Source: an uncultured Candidatus Saccharibacteria bacterium (GTDB taxonomy: Bacteria > Patescibacteriota > Minisyncoccia > Phycocordibacterales > UBA6065). Taken from it: DNA of 64,000 nucleotides. Positions 9,068 to 51,716 of the stretch are shown piece after piece. The notes beneath the pieces were generated by a model. The model was given only the letters and a program-made list of their open reading frames with translations, had not been told where the DNA came from and ran no database searches. Position 1 is the stretch's first letter. Every line of letters starts with the position of its first letter. The translations under genes were made by a program, and so were the position numbers. The DNA is taken from assembly GCA_964495425.1 (NCBI GenBank), contig CAZBVG010000002.1, forward strand, positions 14,570 to 78,569, given 5' to 3'.

Positions 9068-10786
9068 GTGAACCTTTTTCGCCGACCAAAAAACTGCGTT
9101 CGAAACGAAATCGACCCAGACGAAATTTTTCTTGATTCAAAGAATATTCCTGGTTTTGATGTCCATCAATTTGAAGGGCGTCTTGAAAAGCCGATTTCAA
9201 TCACGACAATTGTGTCTTTGTCAGTTGCTTTTTGTATTCTAGCACTGGTGTTACTGGGTAAGGCTTGGCTTCTTCAGGCAAAGGACGGAGCAGAATATGC
9301 AGCTATGAGCGAGAATAATACGCTGGACGAAACGACAATATTTTCGGAACGTGGCGCAATATTCGATCGAAATGGTGTGAAGCTTGCATGGAATGCGGTC
9401 GATCCTGAAGAGCCCGACTTTTCGAGCAGGGTGTATATTCAGGATTCTGGTTTTGGCCACGTGCTTGGCTATATTAAGTATCCAACAAAGGACAAGCAGG
9501 GAAACTATTATCGTAAAAATTTTGAGGGCGTTTCAGGCATCGAAAAGTATTTCAACGATGTGCTTCAGGGCGAACACGGGCTTCGTATACTCACAACCGA
9601 CGCTCTGGGTAATATTGAATCTGAGTCTGTCGTTCGCCCCGCAAAGGATGGTGAGAACCTCAATCTATCTCTCGATGCAAACATTCAAGAGAAACTCCAT
9701 GAATCTATTGCAGGACTTGCGCAGAGAGTAGGATTTTCCGGTGGAGGAGGAATAATTATGGATGTGTATACGGGCGAAGTGATTGCGCTTACAAGTTATC
9801 CTGAATATAAAAGCGGAATCATGTCCGATGGTTCAGATAAGAAAACTATTACTGACTACCTCACTGATACACGGAAGCCGCTTTTTAACCGCGTGCTTTC
9901 AGGACTTTATACGCCGGGATCGATTGTAAAGCCGTATGTTGCACTCGCGGCACTTGAAGAAAATACTATCGACCCAAACAAGGAAATTATTTCAACAGGG
10001 TCAATAAGTATTCCAAATCCTTATGACAAAACCAAGAAAACAGTATTCATGGACTGGAAGGCGCACGGTGCAGTTGATATGAGAAAGGCGATTGCGGTAT
10101 CTTCAAACGTTTATTTTTATGAAGTTGGAGGAGGATTTGAGGGGCAAAAGGGTTTGGGTATTGATCGGCTCAATAAGTACTTTTCGATGATGGGCTTTGG
10201 AAAATCTACTGACTCTGGATTCTTTACAAGCCCAGCTGGTACAGTACCTTCTCCAACCTGGAAAGATAAAGTTTTTCCAGGTGATCCATGGCGTATTGGT
10301 GATACATACTTTACGTCAATCGGTCAGTACGGTTTCCAAGTAACTCCGTTTCAAATGGTTCGAGCTGTAGCGTCGATTGCAAATGGGGGAACATATCTCA
10401 TGCCATCGATACTTAAGTTTTCTACGTCGTCTCAGACACACATTATCTCGAGCGATTTGCCTGTGAGCGCATCGAATATTCAAATAATTCGTGAAGGTAT
10501 GCGACAGGGAGCTCAAACCGGTACCGCAAGCGGTCTTAATGTTCCATACGTCAAAGTAGCGGCAAAAACGGGTACTGCGGAGCTTGGAGTATCAAAAGCG
10601 TTTGTTAATTCCTGGGTAGCTGGCTTTTTCCCGTATGAAAGCCCGCGCTATGCGTTTGTGGTGATGATGGAACATGGTCCACGAACAAACATTTACGGTG
10701 CCACCTTTGTGATGAGAGAGCTGCTTGATTGGATGAATGTAAATGCCCCTGAGTATTTGGCGGTGCCAGAAAGTACTCAAAACTAG
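9068..10786 (+). CDS. mrdA: penicillin-binding protein 2 (class B transpeptidase, elongasome)
   Basis: Single N-terminal TM helix, and a transpeptidase domain with STGS (SxxK-type), SSN and KTGTA motifs. Gene order mreBCD-pbp2. Confidence 0.8.
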   Translation: MNLFRRPKNCVRNEIDPDEIFLDSKNIPGFDVHQFEGRLEKPISITTIVSLSVAFCILALVLLGKAWLLQAKDGAEYAAMSENNTLDETTIFSERGAIFDRNGVKLAWNAVDPEEPDFSSRVYIQDSGFGHVLGYIKYPTKDKQGNYYRKNFEGVSGIEKYFNDVLQGEHGLRILTTDALGNIESESVVRPAKDGENLNLSLDANIQEKLHESIAGLAQRVGFSGGGGIIMDVYTGEVIALTSYPEYKSGIMSDGSDKKTITDYLTDTRKPLFNRVLSGLYTPGSIVKPYVALAALEENTIDPNKEIISTGSISIPNPYDKTKKTVFMDWKAHGAVDMRKAIAVSSNVYFYEVGGGFEGQKGLGIDRLNKYFSMMGFGKSTDSGFFTSPAGTVPSPTWKDKVFPGDPWRIGDTYFTSIGQYGFQVTPFQMVRAVASIANGGTYLMPSILKFSTSSQTHIISSDLPVSASNIQIIREGMRQGAQTGTASGLNVPYVKVAAKTGTAELGVSKAFVNSWVAGFFPYESPRYAFVVMMEHGPRTNIYGATFVMRELLDWMNVNAPEYLAVPESTQN

Positions 10787-21049: not shown

Positions 21050-21062
21050 TCCTATACCTTTG

Positions 21063-21134
21063 TGACCCTACGGGGAATCGAACCCCGATTTAAAGCTTGA
21101 GAAGCTTCTGTCCTAACCATTAGACGATAGGGCC
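21063..21134 (-). tRNA. tRNA-Glu(CTC)
   Basis: Reverse complement GGCCCTATCGTCTAATGGTTAGGACAGAAGCTTCTCAAGCTTTAAATCGGGGTTCGATTCCCCGTAGGGTCA folds as a 72-nt cloverleaf: 7-bp acceptor stem, GGTTCGATTCC T-arm, anticodon loop TTCTCAA. CCA is not encoded. Confidence 0.85.
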
Positions 21135-43506: not shown

Positions 43507-44619
43507 CTACACAACGTTATTGTTGAGTTTTGCATAGCGAGAGATGTTGAGGAGTATTCCAGACTCAGCAAGCACAAAGAGAAGCGCGGTACCTCCCTGT
43601 GACACGAAAAGAAGTGGAATTCCTGAAAGCGGTAGCACACCAACCATGGCACCAATGTTAATAAACGATTGAACCATGATAAATGTAATGATTCCGACCG
43701 CGAGGAGACCACCAAACGTGTGATTAGCCGCGCGAGCTATCTTGAGGCTACGCATTGCAAAGAATACATACAGCAAGACGAGCGCCATGCTGCCGAAAAA
43801 ACCGAATTCTTCTGCTGCGACAGCAAAAATTGAATCGCCGACAGGTTCGGGCAGATAATTAAATTTTTGAATGCTTTGACCGAAACCTCGGCCGGTAAAT
43901 CCGCCGGAGCCGATGGCAATAAGCGATTGTTGAATTTGATAACCAGATCCTTGGCTTTGTGCAGAAGGATTAATGAATGTTTGAATTCTCGACATGATGT
44001 ACGGTCGTGTGAAAGCAAGAATGGTGAGACCGAGAAGTGCAATAAGCACCAAGGAACCAATATGTCGCCACTTCCCTCCTCCGGCTAGATACATTGCCAT
44101 GAGCGCAGATGAAATAACCACGAGTGTGTCTGTATCAGGCTGCATGAGACACAGTCCCGCAACCACGCTCAGCATAATAATGAGCGGTAAAAATCCGTGT
44201 CTGAAGTCATTTATCTTTTCCTTTGCCATCGAAAGCCATGCGGCAAAATATATGACTGCAGCAATCTTCAATACCTCAGAAACTTGGAATGAAAATGTGC
44301 CAATGAGAAGCCATCGTGTTGCGCCGCCATGGGTAAGTCCAACTCCCGGAATGAAAATAATAAGGTTTAAGAGGATGGCAAAAACTAAAAACCAAAACGC
44401 TGCTCGTCGCCAATACAAATAATTAATATGTGCCACCACAAACAATGCTATGAGACCAGGTACAAGGCCAAAAAAGATTTGCTTGAAAGCGATTGAACTG
44501 AAATGGGTTGAGTCACGCGCCAAAAGTCCCAAGGAGGCAGACAAAAAGATGAGAAATCCCGCTCCAACAAGAAGCAGGACAGAAATGAGAAGCTGTCTGT
44601 CAATTTTCTGAGATCGCAT
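43507..44619 (-). CDS. ftsW: SEDS family peptidoglycan glycosyltransferase (FtsW/RodA)
   Basis: Ten TM helices with the SEDS pattern; directly upstream of murG. Confidence 0.8.
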   Translation of the reverse strand: MRSQKIDRQLLISVLLLVGAGFLIFLSASLGLLARDSTHFSSIAFKQIFFGLVPGLIALFVVAHINYLYWRRAAFWFLVFAILLNLIIFIPGVGLTHGGATRWLLIGTFSFQVSEVLKIAAVIYFAAWLSMAKEKINDFRHGFLPLIIMLSVVAGLCLMQPDTDTLVVISSALMAMYLAGGGKWRHIGSLVLIALLGLTILAFTRPYIMSRIQTFINPSAQSQGSGYQIQQSLIAIGSGGFTGRGFGQSIQKFNYLPEPVGDSIFAVAAEEFGFFGSMALVLLYVFFAMRSLKIARAANHTFGGLLAVGIITFIMVQSFINIGAMVGVLPLSGIPLLFVSQGGTALLFVLAESGILLNISRYAKLNNNVV

Positions 44620-47608: not shown

Positions 47609-48250
47609 TTAAATGTCAAACAAATGATTGTATATTTTAACAGCTATTTCTGCACGTTGTTCATTTGTTTTTGATTGTGCAAAATCGGTAATAAGATTAT
47701 AAAAATATGTATCTTCCTGCTCGAACACATCTATTGCTTCATAGATTGGGATTGGCCATCTACTCCTTATTCCAAACCAATATACAAGCGCTAAATCAAA
47801 AAATTTGCAGATATGTCTAAAACATATGATGTTATTATTTGTGGTTCCTAAAATTGCTTCGAGGAATCTTTGCAGCCTGGTTTTGTTATCTTGAAGCTCG
47901 TCAGAGGTCCATTCTTTTGGACCCTGCATATATCTTGCTAGAGTTCTATTTTCATATTCAATGAGTTTATTCTTCAACTTGTCATCTCTATAAAGGACAT
48001 CAAAAGGTACCGCTGGTGAATATGGTGTATCAATCACCGAGAAATCAATTTTTGATTCGTGAATGTATTTAATATCAATTGAAATATTGTCAAATTTTTC
48101 TGATAATGGATTTTCATTATCTGGAACAACTAAATGTATATCCCAATCACTATTTTTTCTTTGTTTGTTTCTAACTCTTGACCCAGATAGGTAGATACCT
48201 GATGCCTTAAACTTTTTAACGTAGTAATCTACTATTTGTTTCTTGATCAT
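47609..48250 (-). CDS. Pol-beta superfamily nucleotidyltransferase (KNTase / Lnu-like two-domain architecture)
   Basis: GSRVRNKQRKNSDWDIHLVV matches the GS-x9-13-DxD nucleotidyltransferase motif; an all-helical C-terminal domain follows. AT-rich. Confidence 0.6.
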   Translation of the reverse strand: MIKKQIVDYYVKKFKASGIYLSGSRVRNKQRKNSDWDIHLVVPDNENPLSEKFDNISIDIKYIHESKIDFSVIDTPYSPAVPFDVLYRDDKLKNKLIEYENRTLARYMQGPKEWTSDELQDNKTRLQRFLEAILGTTNNNIICFRHICKFFDLALVYWFGIRSRWPIPIYEAIDVFEQEDTYFYNLITDFAQSKTNEQRAEIAVKIYNHLFDI

Positions 48251-48309: not shown

Positions 48310-49710
48310 TTATTTTTTCTCCTTTTTGACGGTAATCCCTAGTTCAATAAGTTGTTCCAATGAAACCTCCGAAGGGGACTTTATCATAAGGTCTCTTCCC
48401 TCGCCTGTTTTTGCAAAGGCGATTACCTCACGAATATTTGGTTCATTTTGAAGGATTGCCATTAATCGATCGAGTCCCCATGCTATGCCACCATGCGGAG
48501 GTGCGCCATATGAGAATGCATCGAGCATATGGCCGAAATTCTCTTTAATTTTTTCTGGAGAGTGTCCCATGATTTCGAGTACTTTGGTAAGGGCTTCTGG
48601 GACATGGTTTCGGATCGATCCCCCGCCAATTTCAAAACCGTTGAGCGCTACATCGTACTGAGTCGTTAATATTTCTCCGATGTTTTCCTTTTTCATAAGC
48701 ATATCCATATGCTCTGGCTTTGGAGCCGAGAAAGGATTATGGGTAAATGTCCATCCACCAGTTTCTGTTTTTTCAAAAAATGGAAAATCAATAACCCAGC
48801 AGAATGCCAAAAGATTTGGATCACTCTTATCGGTACGAATATCTGGTTTATCACTATTGTATTTCTCCATCGCTTCTTTGTAGGTAAGGCGTGGAAAAGG
48901 AATCTGTTGGATTTTCTTGTGTGGAGCAACAGTTTTTACGAGCTCGATTAAAAGCTTTTCGTTCAGCGCCATCACATCTTCTCGCTTTACAAAGCTCATT
49001 TCCATATCAAGCTGGGTAAATTCTGGTTGTCGGTCACCTCGCGTATCTTCGTCTCGCATACAGCGGGCAAGTTGGAAATACTTTTCAAATCCAGAGACCA
49101 TTAAAAGCTGTTTGTACTGCTGAGGCGACTGTGGGAGCGCATAGAACTTTCCGTTTTCAAGTCGTGATGGGACAAGGTAGTCACGGGAACCTTCTGGAGT
49201 TGATTTAGTTAAAAGAGGTGTCTCTATTTCTGTAAAACCTTCCTTTGTAAGGTAGTTTCGAATAAACATATTTACCGCATGTCTGGTCCTGATATTCTTT
49301 TGAAGTCTTGGACGTCGCAAATCAAGATATCGGTATGTAAGGCGGCTTTCTTCACCTATCTCCTTACCTTCGCCACGAACGTCAATTGGAGGGGTCTGTG
49401 CCTCGTTTAAAACAGTTATAGAGAGGATTTCAAGCTCTATAGCACCATTTTGCTTATCCTTCTGAACGTTCTTCTCTGGACGAGGATTAACTTTGCCGGT
49501 AACTTCAATCACCCACTCCGGACGGACTTTTGTTGCCACAGCTTGAGCATCTTTTGCACCAGGCAAAACAACTCCCTGGACGTATCCAGTCATGTCTCTG
49601 AAATCAAGAAAGACAAGCTTTCCTTGATCGCGGCGAATATCGATCCATCCTTTGATGGTGACAGTCTCACCCTTTTTCGACTCGAGGTCTTTGATGTATG
49701 TTCGTTCCAT
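48310..49710 (-). CDS. aspS: aspartate--tRNA ligase (short type)
   Basis: N-terminal OB fold, FRDEDTRGDRQPEFTQLDMEMSF motif 2 and GGIAWGLDRLMAIL motif 3; 466 aa. Confidence 0.9.
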   Translation of the reverse strand: MERTYIKDLESKKGETVTIKGWIDIRRDQGKLVFLDFRDMTGYVQGVVLPGAKDAQAVATKVRPEWVIEVTGKVNPRPEKNVQKDKQNGAIELEILSITVLNEAQTPPIDVRGEGKEIGEESRLTYRYLDLRRPRLQKNIRTRHAVNMFIRNYLTKEGFTEIETPLLTKSTPEGSRDYLVPSRLENGKFYALPQSPQQYKQLLMVSGFEKYFQLARCMRDEDTRGDRQPEFTQLDMEMSFVKREDVMALNEKLLIELVKTVAPHKKIQQIPFPRLTYKEAMEKYNSDKPDIRTDKSDPNLLAFCWVIDFPFFEKTETGGWTFTHNPFSAPKPEHMDMLMKKENIGEILTTQYDVALNGFEIGGGSIRNHVPEALTKVLEIMGHSPEKIKENFGHMLDAFSYGAPPHGGIAWGLDRLMAILQNEPNIREVIAFAKTGEGRDLMIKSPSEVSLEQLIELGITVKKEKK

Positions 49711-49741: not shown

Positions 49742-49930
49742 TAAAAAAGCGCCCCTCCAAATTTAACGCTGTTAAATTCGCAGGGGCGATTTCATCGCGG
49801 TGCCACCCTGGTTTCGTCTTAATTTACCGCATCAGGCGGCATCTGGAGGAGTCTACTCTGGCCCTTTAAAGCCATTTCTTTCCTCGCCTCGCCGGTGTCA
49901 GCCGGGTCGTTGGATGGGGTTACTTTAGCG
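49742..49930 (-). promoter_or_regulatory. T-box riboswitch leader of aspS (5' extent uncertain)
   Basis: Minus strand reads AGGGUGGCACCGCGAUGAAAUCGCCCCU. That is the T-box sequence (49796-49809) forming an antiterminator with helices AGGG/CCCU and GCGAU/AUCGC around the 7-nt bulge UGGCACC. A competing 18-bp terminator hairpin (49749-49788) plus U-run ends 36 nt before the aspS ATG. Confidence 0.75.
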
Positions 49931-49958
49931 CAAAAAAATCACTAGAGCAAATATCAAA

Positions 49959-51716
49959 TTACAACTTCTGCTTTTCCCAAAGGGTATAGAATCTCCCTCT
50001 CATTTTATGCAATTCATCGAATGATCCGTGCTCTATAATTTTACCGTCTTCAATCATAAGAATTTTATCCATTTCCTTAATGGTGGAAAGTCTATGTGCA
50101 ATTACAACTGCTGTTACAGTTTTAAAGAAATGATGGAGTGAATCCTGAATTTTTTCCTCGGATTCAATATCGAGATGAGAGGTTGCTTCATCGAGAAGTA
50201 AAAGTTCGGGCTCCTTATAAATTGCTCGGGCTAATCCAACTCGCTGTTTCTCTCCTCCAGATAGCTTCACTCCCTTTTCACCAATAAGCGTATTAATTCC
50301 CTGTGGTAATAGTTTTGCAAACCCATTCACATGCGCGACAGTAAGTGCTCTTTCGAGTAGACCTTCATCAGTCAGCTTATCAATATTAGAAATGGTTATA
50401 TTATCTTTGAGAGTCAGGTTAAAGACCTCGGTATCTTGAAGTACTACAGCCGTATGCTTAAAATAATCAATTTTACTGATAGTTTTTAGAGGTACGCCAT
50501 CAACGAGAATATCTCCAGTGTAGCTCTCCCTTTCTTTCAAGAGAAGTTTAAACAGAGTAGATTTACCTGCCCCGGAGAGACCAACAATACCAATTTTTTC
50601 ACCTCTTGAAATAGTAAATGAAACATCTTCAAGAATTTTTTTATCTCCATACGAAAATGAAAGATTTTTAACTTCGATATTCTTCCAATCCTTTGGAAAC
50701 ATAACCTTTCCTTCTTCGATGTCAGTAACAGGTTTGGTCTGCAATAGTTCCATCATTCGCGCTACAGACTGCTTGTGTGTTGCGAAAGTTTGAGAAATAT
50801 CAGCAAGTCTTGAAATAGCGGCTAAAACATTTGAGAAATAGCTGTAGAAAAGAACAATGAACCCAATATCATATCTTCCGTGCATAATACCAACACCAAT
50901 ATATGCGACTACACCTAATCGGAATATGTGACCCATTAAATTTTTTACCACGCCACCTGATAGATACCAAAACATCCTTTTGTACGCCAAAGAAACAAGG
51001 TCATTACAAAATATCGTGAGTCTTGAGATAAGAGGATTCACCATGGACATGACCTTGGCGCTGCGAACATTGTTTACGGATTCAAAAACGAGGCCAGAAA
51101 CCTCTTCTTCTTTTAGGTGCTCACTTTTTTGAGCTTTTACTGCACGAGTTGTAAAGAAAAAAGAAACAAGCAGATAAACAGCAAAGAAAGCGATTGTCGC
51201 TAATGTAATTGGCTTATCAAAATGCGACATAACAATGAACACACCAAAAATACTCACCCCTACTTCAATAAAGGAGTTAAACCACATTCGAATGAGCTGG
51301 TTTACACCTTCAGCTCCGCGACCTATTCTTTTCACCTTATTTCCTGTGTTTTCTCGTTCGTGCCATTCAATATCAAGTGAAAATGCATGACGCATGGTGA
51401 GAAGTTCGGTTTGAATGGCTGTCTTTTTGGCGAGCTTATATCCGAGCATGTTGCCAAAGTATATGGCAGTAAAATGAAAAATAATCACGATTCCGAATGT
51501 CACTACGATTCTCCAAAACTCATCAAGAGATTCTCCTGTTTTATACGTGCTAAAAAATGTTGTGATTGATGCGAGTGCATACGCTGAATAGAGCCACGAT
51601 ATATCACTCGCAATCCGGATGACAGACGCCCAAATAAAACGCCACTTGAACGGCTTGGCAAAGGTAAAAAGATCCCTAATCAGTGCAAACGAAGAATAAT
51701 TGAACTCGTTGTTCAT
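49959..51716 (-). CDS. ABC exporter, fused permease and ATPase
   Basis: Six TM helices, Walker A GLSGAGKST, signature LSGGEKQRVGLARAI and Walker B LLLLDEATSHLD. Confidence 0.85.
   Translation of the reverse strand: MNNEFNYSSFALIRDLFTFAKPFKWRFIWASVIRIASDISWLYSAYALASITTFFSTYKTGESLDEFWRIVVTFGIVIIFHFTAIYFGNMLGYKLAKKTAIQTELLTMRHAFSLDIEWHERENTGNKVKRIGRGAEGVNQLIRMWFNSFIEVGVSIFGVFIVMSHFDKPITLATIAFFAVYLLVSFFFTTRAVKAQKSEHLKEEEVSGLVFESVNNVRSAKVMSMVNPLISRLTIFCNDLVSLAYKRMFWYLSGGVVKNLMGHIFRLGVVAYIGVGIMHGRYDIGFIVLFYSYFSNVLAAISRLADISQTFATHKQSVARMMELLQTKPVTDIEEGKVMFPKDWKNIEVKNLSFSYGDKKILEDVSFTISRGEKIGIVGLSGAGKSTLFKLLLKERESYTGDILVDGVPLKTISKIDYFKHTAVVLQDTEVFNLTLKDNITISNIDKLTDEGLLERALTVAHVNGFAKLLPQGINTLIGEKGVKLSGGEKQRVGLARAIYKEPELLLLDEATSHLDIESEEKIQDSLHHFFKTVTAVVIAHRLSTIKEMDKILMIEDGKIIEHGSFDELHKMRGRFYTLWEKQKL

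Follow-up and report, generated by a model that had tools for sequence, protein, structure and literature searches.

Locus and leader organization

The window analysed here is a 64-kb stretch (64,000 nt) of contig CAZBVG010000002.1 from an uncultured Candidatus Saccharibacteria bacterium, in which aspS, the gene for a bacterial-type aspartyl-tRNA synthetase (AspRS), lies on the minus strand behind an open reading frame (ORF) for an ATP-binding cassette (ABC) transporter. This upstream ORF ends at 49959 and aspS begins at 49710, leaving the gap of 248 nt from which an earlier sequence-only reading of the DNA had started; the profile matches listed in Table 1 bear out its naming of the downstream gene, and the antiterminator that it had drawn upstream of aspS (AGGG-UGGCACC-GCGAU-GAA-AUCGC-CCCU) is located as it said, within 49742–49930. 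From the sequence and structural features described below, the leader in this gap is very probably a functional tRNA-Asp-responsive T-box transcription attenuator of aspS, with a reduced architecture.

The antiterminator contains the T-box core AGGGUGGCACCGCG...CGCCCCU, the helices A1 and A2 and a 7-nt bulge of the UGGNACC type (segments C-AGGG 49810–49806, UGGCACC 49805–49799, GCGAU 49798–49794, AUCGC 49790–49786 and CCCUG 49785–49781). The segment CGCCCCUG (49788–49781) is common to the antiterminator and to the intrinsic terminator that follows it, so the two folds are mutually exclusive. The terminator, at −25.2 kcal/mol, is much stronger than the antiterminator alone (−9.6 kcal/mol) and is part of the minimum free energy (MFE) fold of the whole leader, so termination would be the default state. 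The sequence, the fold energies and the covariance model described below all support the antiterminator/terminator switch of T-box type that the sequence-only reading had proposed on aspS. Its 18-bp terminator with a U-tract was found as a mutually exclusive hairpin followed by U6, although with 17 pairs and one G.G mismatch, and the U-tract ends 32 nt before the ATG rather than 36 nt.

Table 1. Features of the aspS leader and gene in the window
Feature	Position	Strand	Details
−35-like hexamer TTGCTC	49945..49950	-	Putative promoter, identified by eye; 17 nt from TAAAGT
−10-like hexamer TAAAGT	49922..49927	-	Would put the RNA 5' end at about 49915, a few nt ahead of the K-turn
Kink-turn (K-turn; GA motif) enclosing Stem I	49887..49913	-	From the sequence and family covariation; C-stem pairs C49913-G49887 and C49912-G49888 (CC/GG); 3-nt bulge AAC 49911-49909; tandem G49908-A49907 / G49890-A49889
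Ultrashort Stem I, 4 bp	49892..49905	-	CCGG 49905-49902; loop CUGACA 49901-49896; CCGG 49895-49892
Specifier codon GAC (Asp) in the Stem I terminal loop	49897..49899	-	Followed by the conserved purine A49896
Stem II	49846..49885	-	Lower helix GAGGA 49885-49881 / UCCUC 49850-49846; apical hairpin 49874-49859
Predicted Stem II S-turn strands	49880-49875 and 49858-49851	-	AAGAAA and GAGUAGAC
Stem IIA/B H-type pseudoknot, 19 nt	49827..49845	-	CAG 49845-49843:CUG 49835-49833; CCGC 49839-49836:GCGG 49830-49827
Purine-rich 16-nt linker at the Stem III site	49811..49826	-	UAAAUUAAGACGAAAC; RAG = A49820-A49819-G49818; invariant AA = A49813-A49812
Antiterminator	49781..49810	-	A1 CAGGG/CCCUG; bulge UGGCACC; A2 GCGAU/AUCGC, loop GAA
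Intrinsic terminator	49743..49788	-	17-bp hairpin 49788-49750 (one G.G mismatch), C, U6 49748-49743
aspS, 466-aa bacterial-type AspRS	48310..49710	-	NF001750 626.7 bits (cut-off 443) and TIGR00459 582.4 bits, each in two stretches

A family of related leaders

A scan of one genome per species yielded 80 aspS loci of Patescibacteria (L002–L081). The core GGUGGCACC was found in identical form upstream of aspS in eight of them, and in those leaders a 5' hairpin loop (C/A)UGACA is conserved between arms that carry compensatory changes. Metagenome contigs were scanned with single-stranded motifs (RACA, UAGAMYC and the T-box core), leaving the stems unconstrained, and at least 120 loci were obtained. 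This pattern demanded RACA and set no condition on the stems, the pseudoknot, the K-turn, the terminator or the gene. Among the matches listed, a class IIb aminoacyl-tRNA synthetase (aaRS) gene lies downstream in 57 of 120 loci. Other loci matched by the pattern are canonical T-boxes on asnS, ilvB, leuA and tnaA, together with some 20 leaders of ileS from Actinobacteria, and these were used as internal controls.

A covariance model (R1) was built from a MAFFT seed alignment of 19 leaders. R1 recognizes exactly one site in the window, the aspS leader (118.7 bits), in agreement with the earlier statement that none of the other aaRS genes there has such a leader; of those genes, trpS alone was re-annotated. 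Of the 80 aspS loci taken one per species, 10 gave a match, and in 514 kb of Patescibacteria DNA the model matched beside no other gene. On the collected loci the model gave 63 matches, corresponding to 57 distinct family leaders and one weak canonical match, and the family counts given hereafter rest on these 57 leaders, drawn from the matches listed and the species-representative loci. Wherever the gene behind the leader could be identified (53 leaders), it encodes an AspRS.

Pairing in the R1 alignment is nearly complete, with 97.0% of 1254 pair cells holding standard pairs, against 75.5% after shuffling and 39–51% when the partners were slid. Compensatory changes are seen in 16 of the 22 pairs (308 cells), and the covariation score is 0.619 against 0.05–0.16. 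Since this alignment is fitted to the model, unconstrained RNAalifold was run on a plain MAFFT alignment as an independent check; it returned the identical 22 pairs, and RIBOSUM scoring added helix IIA and a sixth A1 pair.

In the antiterminator, pairing across the family is 99.0% in A1, which covaries, and 99.1% in A2. The bulge is UGGCACC in 44 leaders and UGGUACC in 13 (UGGNACC in 57/57). The basal A2 pair is G-C in all 58 distinct leaders examined, where the consensus and the controls have G.U. A strong hairpin with a U-run, equivalent to the terminator of the window, was found in 56 of the 57 relatives. The sole member without it (L126, 9465–9595, minus strand) has an AspRS ORF starting 14 nt past the antiterminator and could be a form of this leader that acts on translation.

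Stem I is 99.6% paired (58 distinct sequences) and was also predicted independently by unconstrained RNAalifold. All four of its pairs covary; one of them is CG in 29, GC in 20, AU in 4 and GU in 2 leaders, and another GC in 24, CG in 12, AU in 11 and UA in 10. Its loop has the form NN-(G/A)AC-A throughout the family (CUGACA in 28/57), and for this reason we take GAC at 49899–49897 to be the specifier. The loop codon is also present in leaders retrieved via the AspRS protein instead of the codon pattern. The sequence-only reading had sought the specifier elsewhere. Its GAC in AGAGUAGAC belongs to the 3' strand of the Stem II S-turn, where UAGAA is found in about 45 of the 57 leaders and UAGAC in only about 10, and GAC in AGAGUAGACU was accordingly rejected as a specifier for its S-turn position and lack of conservation (already in the eight leaders with the identical core, the triplet is GAC or GAA); its GAU in CCAGAUG falls in helix IIA and loop 1 of the IIA/B pseudoknot and is not conserved either. 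A Stem I with an Asp codon in its loop does exist, as that reading expected, but in a 4-bp hairpin that it had not mentioned.

In the K-turn that encloses Stem I, 101 of the 102 C-stem cells are paired in register, compared with 27–55% when slid; the second C-stem pair covaries (CG 28, GC 17, AU 3, UA 2), and the Rfam T-box model RF00230 places the UGA/GAG of relatives on its own K-turn positions. In 41 of 51 related leaders, the K-turn bulge is preceded by a TANNNT hexamer, with at least four of six matches to TATAAT, whose end lies 9–15 nt upstream. The position of this −10 hexamer across the family indicates that the RNA begins at the K-turn, with no space upstream for a long Stem I. In the window itself, a consensus promoter scan did not call TTGCTC-17-TAAAGT, which stands as a putative promoter.

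Both helices of Stem II are supported, the lower with 96% and the upper with 90% pairing and each with four covarying pairs. The apex varies in length and sequence among the leaders. The strand AAGAAA is present in 38/57 leaders, the commonest 3' strand is (A/G)AGUAGAA, and RF00230 places the GAA/AGUA of relatives on its Stem II S-turn positions. In a known T-box, the Stem II S-turn G37A38A39 / G67U68A69G70A71 docks on the codon-anticodon duplex (PMC7583486), and AAGAAA/GAGUAGAC is, to judge from its sequence, an S-turn of this type.

The pseudoknot region of the MAFFT alignment is out of register, and the pseudoknot was therefore analysed sequence by sequence against shuffles. An H-type pseudoknot was found in 38 of 49 leaders, compared with 10.7% of shuffles, with S1 variants CGG/CCG, CGU/ACG and CAG/CUG and 28 different S2 helices. 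An F-box-like CCCGUUA is frequent in relatives, and RF00230 aligns it to its IIA/CCGUUA positions; the F-box of the window is CCGCCUGAU rather than CCGUUA, and both pseudoknot helices are nonetheless present. In the linker behind it, R-A-G (R, purine) stands at −10 to −8 relative to A1 (96%, 96% and 71% G), and AA at −3/−2 is found in 100%.

Detection by the curated T-box model

The gathering score of RF00230 is 93 bits. A permissive scan of the gap upstream of aspS gave a local match to model positions 183–216, that is, to the antiterminator alone, with 24.4 bits (E=0.0012). None of 18 family members tested passed the gathering score, which the canonical control on asnS (L091) passed with 108 bits. 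When RF00230 was forced onto relatives it scored 34.6–45.8 bits, replacing 72–74 Stem I positions with 2–4 nt and deleting the Stem III hairpin, and it placed the K-turn, Stem II S-turn, IIA/F-box and antiterminator in the correct order. The leader is thus no textbook T-box, as the sequence-only reading had called it. The same reading had offered an RF00230 search as the decisive test, with absence of a significant match to be taken as evidence of a chance motif; the search gave no match at the gathering score, and the related leaders indicate that such a rule would wrongly reject a real element.

Two look-alikes of the T-box core in the window were rejected as chance occurrences. The 13-mer GGGTGGNACCNCG with at most one mismatch has two sites in the window against 0.19 expected; the second, GGGAGGTACCGCG (43585–43597, minus strand), lies in the coding sequence of a membrane protein. 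The other look-alike is GGTGGCACC (10697–10705, minus strand). Neither coincides with a match to R1.

tRNA specificity

tRNA-Asp has the anticodon GUC and the discriminator base G73, which are assumed here for the tRNA-Asp of the host; tRNA-Asp and tRNA-Asn both normally carry G73. The UGGC of the bulge is complementary to a GCCA 3' end, as had been pointed out from the sequence. The further argument that this identifies tRNA-Asp is weak alone, since G73 is common to several tRNAs and 13 of the 57 relatives have UGGU (e.g. L083, L086, L109, L120, L143 and L154), eight of them with a GAC specifier. With a UGGU bulge, the tRNA would have to carry A73, or else pair its G73 as a G.U wobble.

Of the 57 leaders, 39 have GAC and 18 have AAC as specifier, in every case followed by A and in keeping with the C rule for the third position (PMC7583486). 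The AAC (Asn) codon thus occurs in leaders of AspRS genes (for example L076 2278–2417, L101 1496–1638, L125 5133–5296 and L018 195–304), which suggests that tRNA-Asn controls a non-discriminating AspRS there. The sole tRNA gene in the window is one for tRNA-Glu(CUC), at 21062–21134 on the minus strand, and the tRNA genes adjoining the L101 and L123 leaders are for Met and Pro.

Absence of the Stem I platform and of Stem III

In a canonical, long Stem I, an internal loop holds the specifier and a distal AG-bulge/apical-loop platform docks the tRNA elbow; the leader in the window has 4 bp and a 6-nt loop in its place. A canonical Stem III stands directly ahead of A1, between 5'-RRRxG and AA-3'. 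The Stem III hairpin is also absent from the window, where the RAG and AA that flank its site are kept and the sole hairpin before A1 is IIB, 13 nt away. In the family, the mean MFE over the 20 nt leading up to A1 is −0.09 kcal/mol, and just one leader of 57 falls below −2. A first test for Stem III over 32 nt was confounded by the IIB hairpin and was replaced by a positional test and inspection. By this test, a hairpin ends within 4 nt of A1 in 19 of 20 ileS controls and 14 of 15 canonical controls, and in 7 of 56 aspS leaders of the candidate phyla radiation (CPR). On inspection, most of these seven cases, and most pairings that end 5–7 nt away, proved to be no local hairpins but to involve Stem II's 3' strand at long range.

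A local hairpin between RAG and AA, in the Stem III position, was seen in L164 (3768–3904) and possibly in L156 and L134/L157; it seems that the Stem III hairpin was lost, or gained, within the family. In L159, L144, L186 and L154, the linker GAAGA is complementary to UCUUC in the Stem II 3' strand, and RNAfold pairs the two around the pseudoknot. This pairing could be an alternative fold or a mere purine/pyrimidine bias, and no such complementarity is seen in the window (UCCUC vs UAAGAC).

The literature describes Stem III as present in all known T-boxes, with a discriminator core that is essentially identical in all of them (PMC7583486), and an antiterminator without Stem III as binding no appreciable tRNA (PMC7583486, PMC11404447). 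Transcriptional T-boxes generally need a long Stem I with an elbow platform, a short Stem I going with translational control (PMC7583486), and a short Stem I without Stem II should, according to the literature, scarcely bind tRNA.

Smaller aspS leaders without a Stem II S-turn were also observed (L006 782–864, L019 2310–2416 and L024 707–796), with R1 scores of 45, 41 and 17 bits. The L006 leader consists of 83 nt, with GA flanks, a 3-bp Stem I with the loop GAUGACAA, a purine linker GAG...AA, antiterminator and terminator. Some relatives appear to have shed even Stem II, leaving leaders of 83 nt.

Comparison with known T-boxes

The closest structural likeness is to the ultrashort-Stem-I T-boxes of actinobacterial ileS (Sherwood et al. 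2015 and structure PDB 6UFG, both as cited in PMC7583486), for which the leader-tRNA complex has been solved (PMC7583486, PMC11297988). As described in PMC7583486 and as seen directly in the ileS controls, these leaders (such as ileS of Mycobacterium smegmatis/tuberculosis) share with the aspS leader the GA-motif flanks, a 4-bp Stem I with a 6-nt apical loop NN-codon-A (CCAUCA vs CUGACA), the Stem II S-turn AAGAA.../...UAGAA, a compact pseudoknot, the UGGNACC bulge and the lack of an elbow platform. An ileS leader among our controls (L113) reads GAU-GGGG-CCAUCA-CCCC-GGAG, with the Stem II CCGG-AAGAAC...CUAGAA-CCGG. The window thus has the class II arrangement of an apical-loop specifier on a short Stem I with Stem II and IIA/B support. 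In the expression platform the two groups differ: the ileS leaders sequester the Shine–Dalgarno (SD) sequence (GAAGGA/GGAGG paired) and have no U-run, whereas the aspS family has an intrinsic terminator with a U-run in 56/57, and in the window a hairpin that contains no SD sequence, together with its U6, lies 32 nt ahead of the ATG. The discriminator domain differs as well, since ileS leaders have the Stem III of class II (19/20, with a hairpin 2–3 nt before A1), which the window and most aspS relatives do not, and their basal A2 pair is G.U (CGUCCC) rather than G-C (CGCCCC) as in the window. Specificity, gene and taxon are Ile, ileS and Actinobacteria on one side and Asp or Asn, aspS and Patescibacteria on the other, and R1 does not match ileS leaders at E<1e-8.

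Canonical class I T-boxes (RF00230; B. subtilis tyrS and the asnS leader L091) have in common with the aspS family the competition between terminator and antiterminator, the T-box sequence, the K-turn, a specifier matched to the aaRS that obeys the C rule, the S-turn of Stem II and a IIA/B pseudoknot with F-box. They differ in having the specifier in an internal loop rather than a terminal one, and in about 72–74 Stem I positions and a Stem III that are absent from the aspS family; the latter reaches 24–46 bits with RF00230. The glyQS leaders, minimal T-boxes whose structures have been studied, are likewise reduced and act on transcription, and L006, L019 and L024 resemble them in having no Stem II S-turn. 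However, in glyQS the long Stem I with its platform is retained, as is Stem III, and Stem II and IIA/B are missing (PMC7583486), so the aspS family is its opposite in both modules.

An Asn codon before an AspRS gene, as in 18 of the 57 relatives, has a likeness in Clostridium acetobutylicum, although the specifier of the window is Asp. There, Saad and colleagues are said to have described in 2012 an Asn-specific T-box on an operon of a non-discriminating AspRS and GatCAB, with the canonical long Stem I of Firmicutes.

We class the element as a T-box, both by its descent and by its probable mechanism. Judged by its sequence features, the structural variant is new, as it departs from the curated family in three features (long Stem I, Stem III and gathering score) and from the translational class in two. 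We found no T-box report for Patescibacteria, CPR or Saccharibacteria in the literature searched, the coverage of which is incomplete, so a prior description is possible; T-boxes apparently are unreported in CPR. The taxonomic bearing that the sequence-only reading saw in the leader is thus real but runs in the opposite direction, the host being an ultra-small patescibacterium of the Paceibacteria/Parcubacteria, in a group outside those with T-box reports in that literature. We consider the chances even that Patescibacteria possess an undescribed class of transcription-acting T-boxes, with an apical-loop codon and Stem II support, without the elbow contact or Stem III hairpin, and with G-C in place of the G.U 'steric sensor'.

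Proposed mechanism and alternative explanations

In the mechanism that we propose, transcription would start a few nucleotides ahead of the K-turn and the nascent leader would fold the 4-bp Stem I, showing GAC-A in its terminal loop, then Stem II and then the compact IIA/B pseudoknot. The anticodon GUC of tRNA-Asp would pair with GAC, and the S-turn purines of Stem II would dock on the duplex of codon and anticodon. With an uncharged tRNA, the free 3' GCCA may pair with UGGC of the bulge, stabilising the weak antiterminator and blocking the terminator, and the antiterminated RNA polymerase would read into aspS and probably also into the gene for a nucleotidyltransferase that follows. With a charged tRNA, or with none, the terminator would form and transcription would stop at the U6 tract.

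Several points weigh against this reading. The evidence is entirely computational, and nowhere in the 64 kb of the window does RF00230 reach its gathering score. Neither the elbow platform nor Stem III is present, so function is not guaranteed. The UGGU bulge of 13/57 relatives fits G73 by wobble alone, and no gene for tRNA-Asp or tRNA-Asn was found in the window or in any of 201 loci. As the search pattern required RACA, the conservation of the codon in the metagenome leaders is partly ascertainment, and other specificities were undetectable.

The loss of modules that are called essential or universal (PMC7583486, PMC11404447), in a host with a reduced genome, would fit a decayed T-box relic that no longer senses tRNA, with aspS expressed constitutively or through an attenuator that responds otherwise, to a protein or a nucleoside triphosphate. 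We consider this unlikely, because the elements that would contact the tRNA (the codon and its 3' purine, the S-turn purines, UGGNACC in 57/57, RAG and AA) are under strong purifying selection, and a relic would not retain a codon matched to its gene in 53 of 53 cases.

It is less likely still that the leader is a translational switch like that of actinobacterial ileS, with the helix of the apparent terminator mainly sequestering the ribosome binding site. The decoding module is of a type so far tied to translational control (PMC7583486), and the L126 leader, with its ORF close to the antiterminator and no terminator, could be read in this way. The position of the U6 tract in the window and the lack of a purine-rich SD sequence within the hairpin argue for termination instead, as do the hairpin and U-run shared by nearly all relatives, compared with ileS controls that pair the SD sequence and have no U-runs.

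That the ligand in the host is tRNA-Asn, acting on a non-discriminating AspRS, is highly improbable: the AAC codon of 18 relatives and the discriminator base normally shared by the two tRNAs would allow it, but the GAC of the window loop is fully complementary to the Asp anticodon GUC and not to GUU. A chance T-box-like sequence beside an ordinary terminator, for which the RF00230 match of just 34 positions and 24 bits and the fold of the upstream part of the leader (indistinguishable from shuffles when folded alone, z = −0.56) might speak, is already refuted by the single R1 match in the window and by the recurrence of the whole 133-nt architecture, with extensive covariation, before AspRS genes in 57 distinct leaders. 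The tRNA-Asp-responsive attenuator of aspS is therefore the reading that we retain.

AspRS genes and distribution of the leader

The AspRS of the window has the Pfam domains PF00152 and PF01336 only and measures just 466 aa because the GAD insertion domain (PF02938, about 120 aa) is missing. A gene for a Polbeta-type nucleotidyltransferase (47609–48250, likewise on the minus strand) begins 60 nt past the stop codon of aspS; the two genes are probably transcribed together, and the T-box would then control both. Three types of AspRS are found behind the leader, the short bacterial type of the window, a full-length bacterial type (606 aa, with PF02938) and an archaeal-type aspartate--tRNA(Asn) ligase, and leader-bearing genes share just about 25–85% protein identity. 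For each of the three types, the nearest relatives in the database come from named lineages of Patescibacteria (Paceibacterota, Parcubacteria, Yonathbacteria, Vogelbacteria, Falkowbacteria and others), and the collected family leaders are all attributable to this group.

The distribution of the leader is patchy. Among the 10 of 80 loci that have it are L045 and L076, with more distant AspRS proteins, and the loci with the closest AspRS relatives of the window (L002–L005, 73–81% identity) are without it, which suggests repeated loss or transfer. Operon variants were also seen (L010 2041–2500, L018 195–1143, L095, L164, L099, L184 and L140), in which a small Cys-rich ORF or an ORF of about 200 aa stands between the T-box and aspS; the latter ORF has no NCBIfam match and appears C39-peptidase-like by eye.

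Implications

At its gathering score RF00230 misses the whole family, and TBDB applied its short-Stem-I model to nothing but Actinobacteria and RF00230 hits, which biases surveys of where T-boxes occur. The aspS leaders extend the range of T-box regulation to a large and poorly understood bacterial radiation, and they are one of a small number of cis-regulatory RNAs that can be recognised in genomes so streamlined, limited to AspRS genes in the sequence sampled. With about 130 nt, and 83 nt in the smallest relatives, they would be compact natural tRNA sensors and potential engineering parts.

The family mixes the two known classes, combining the short Stem I of translational T-boxes with the intrinsic terminator of transcriptional ones, and makes it testable which modules the kinetic, co-transcriptional sensing of tRNA really needs. 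A transcriptional T-box without an elbow platform and Stem III would surprise a T-box specialist; if these leaders are functional, co-transcriptional sensing of tRNA would not in general require either module. In that case the form seen in CPR would have arisen by extreme reductive evolution, or it would offer a view of a simpler, ancestral T-box.

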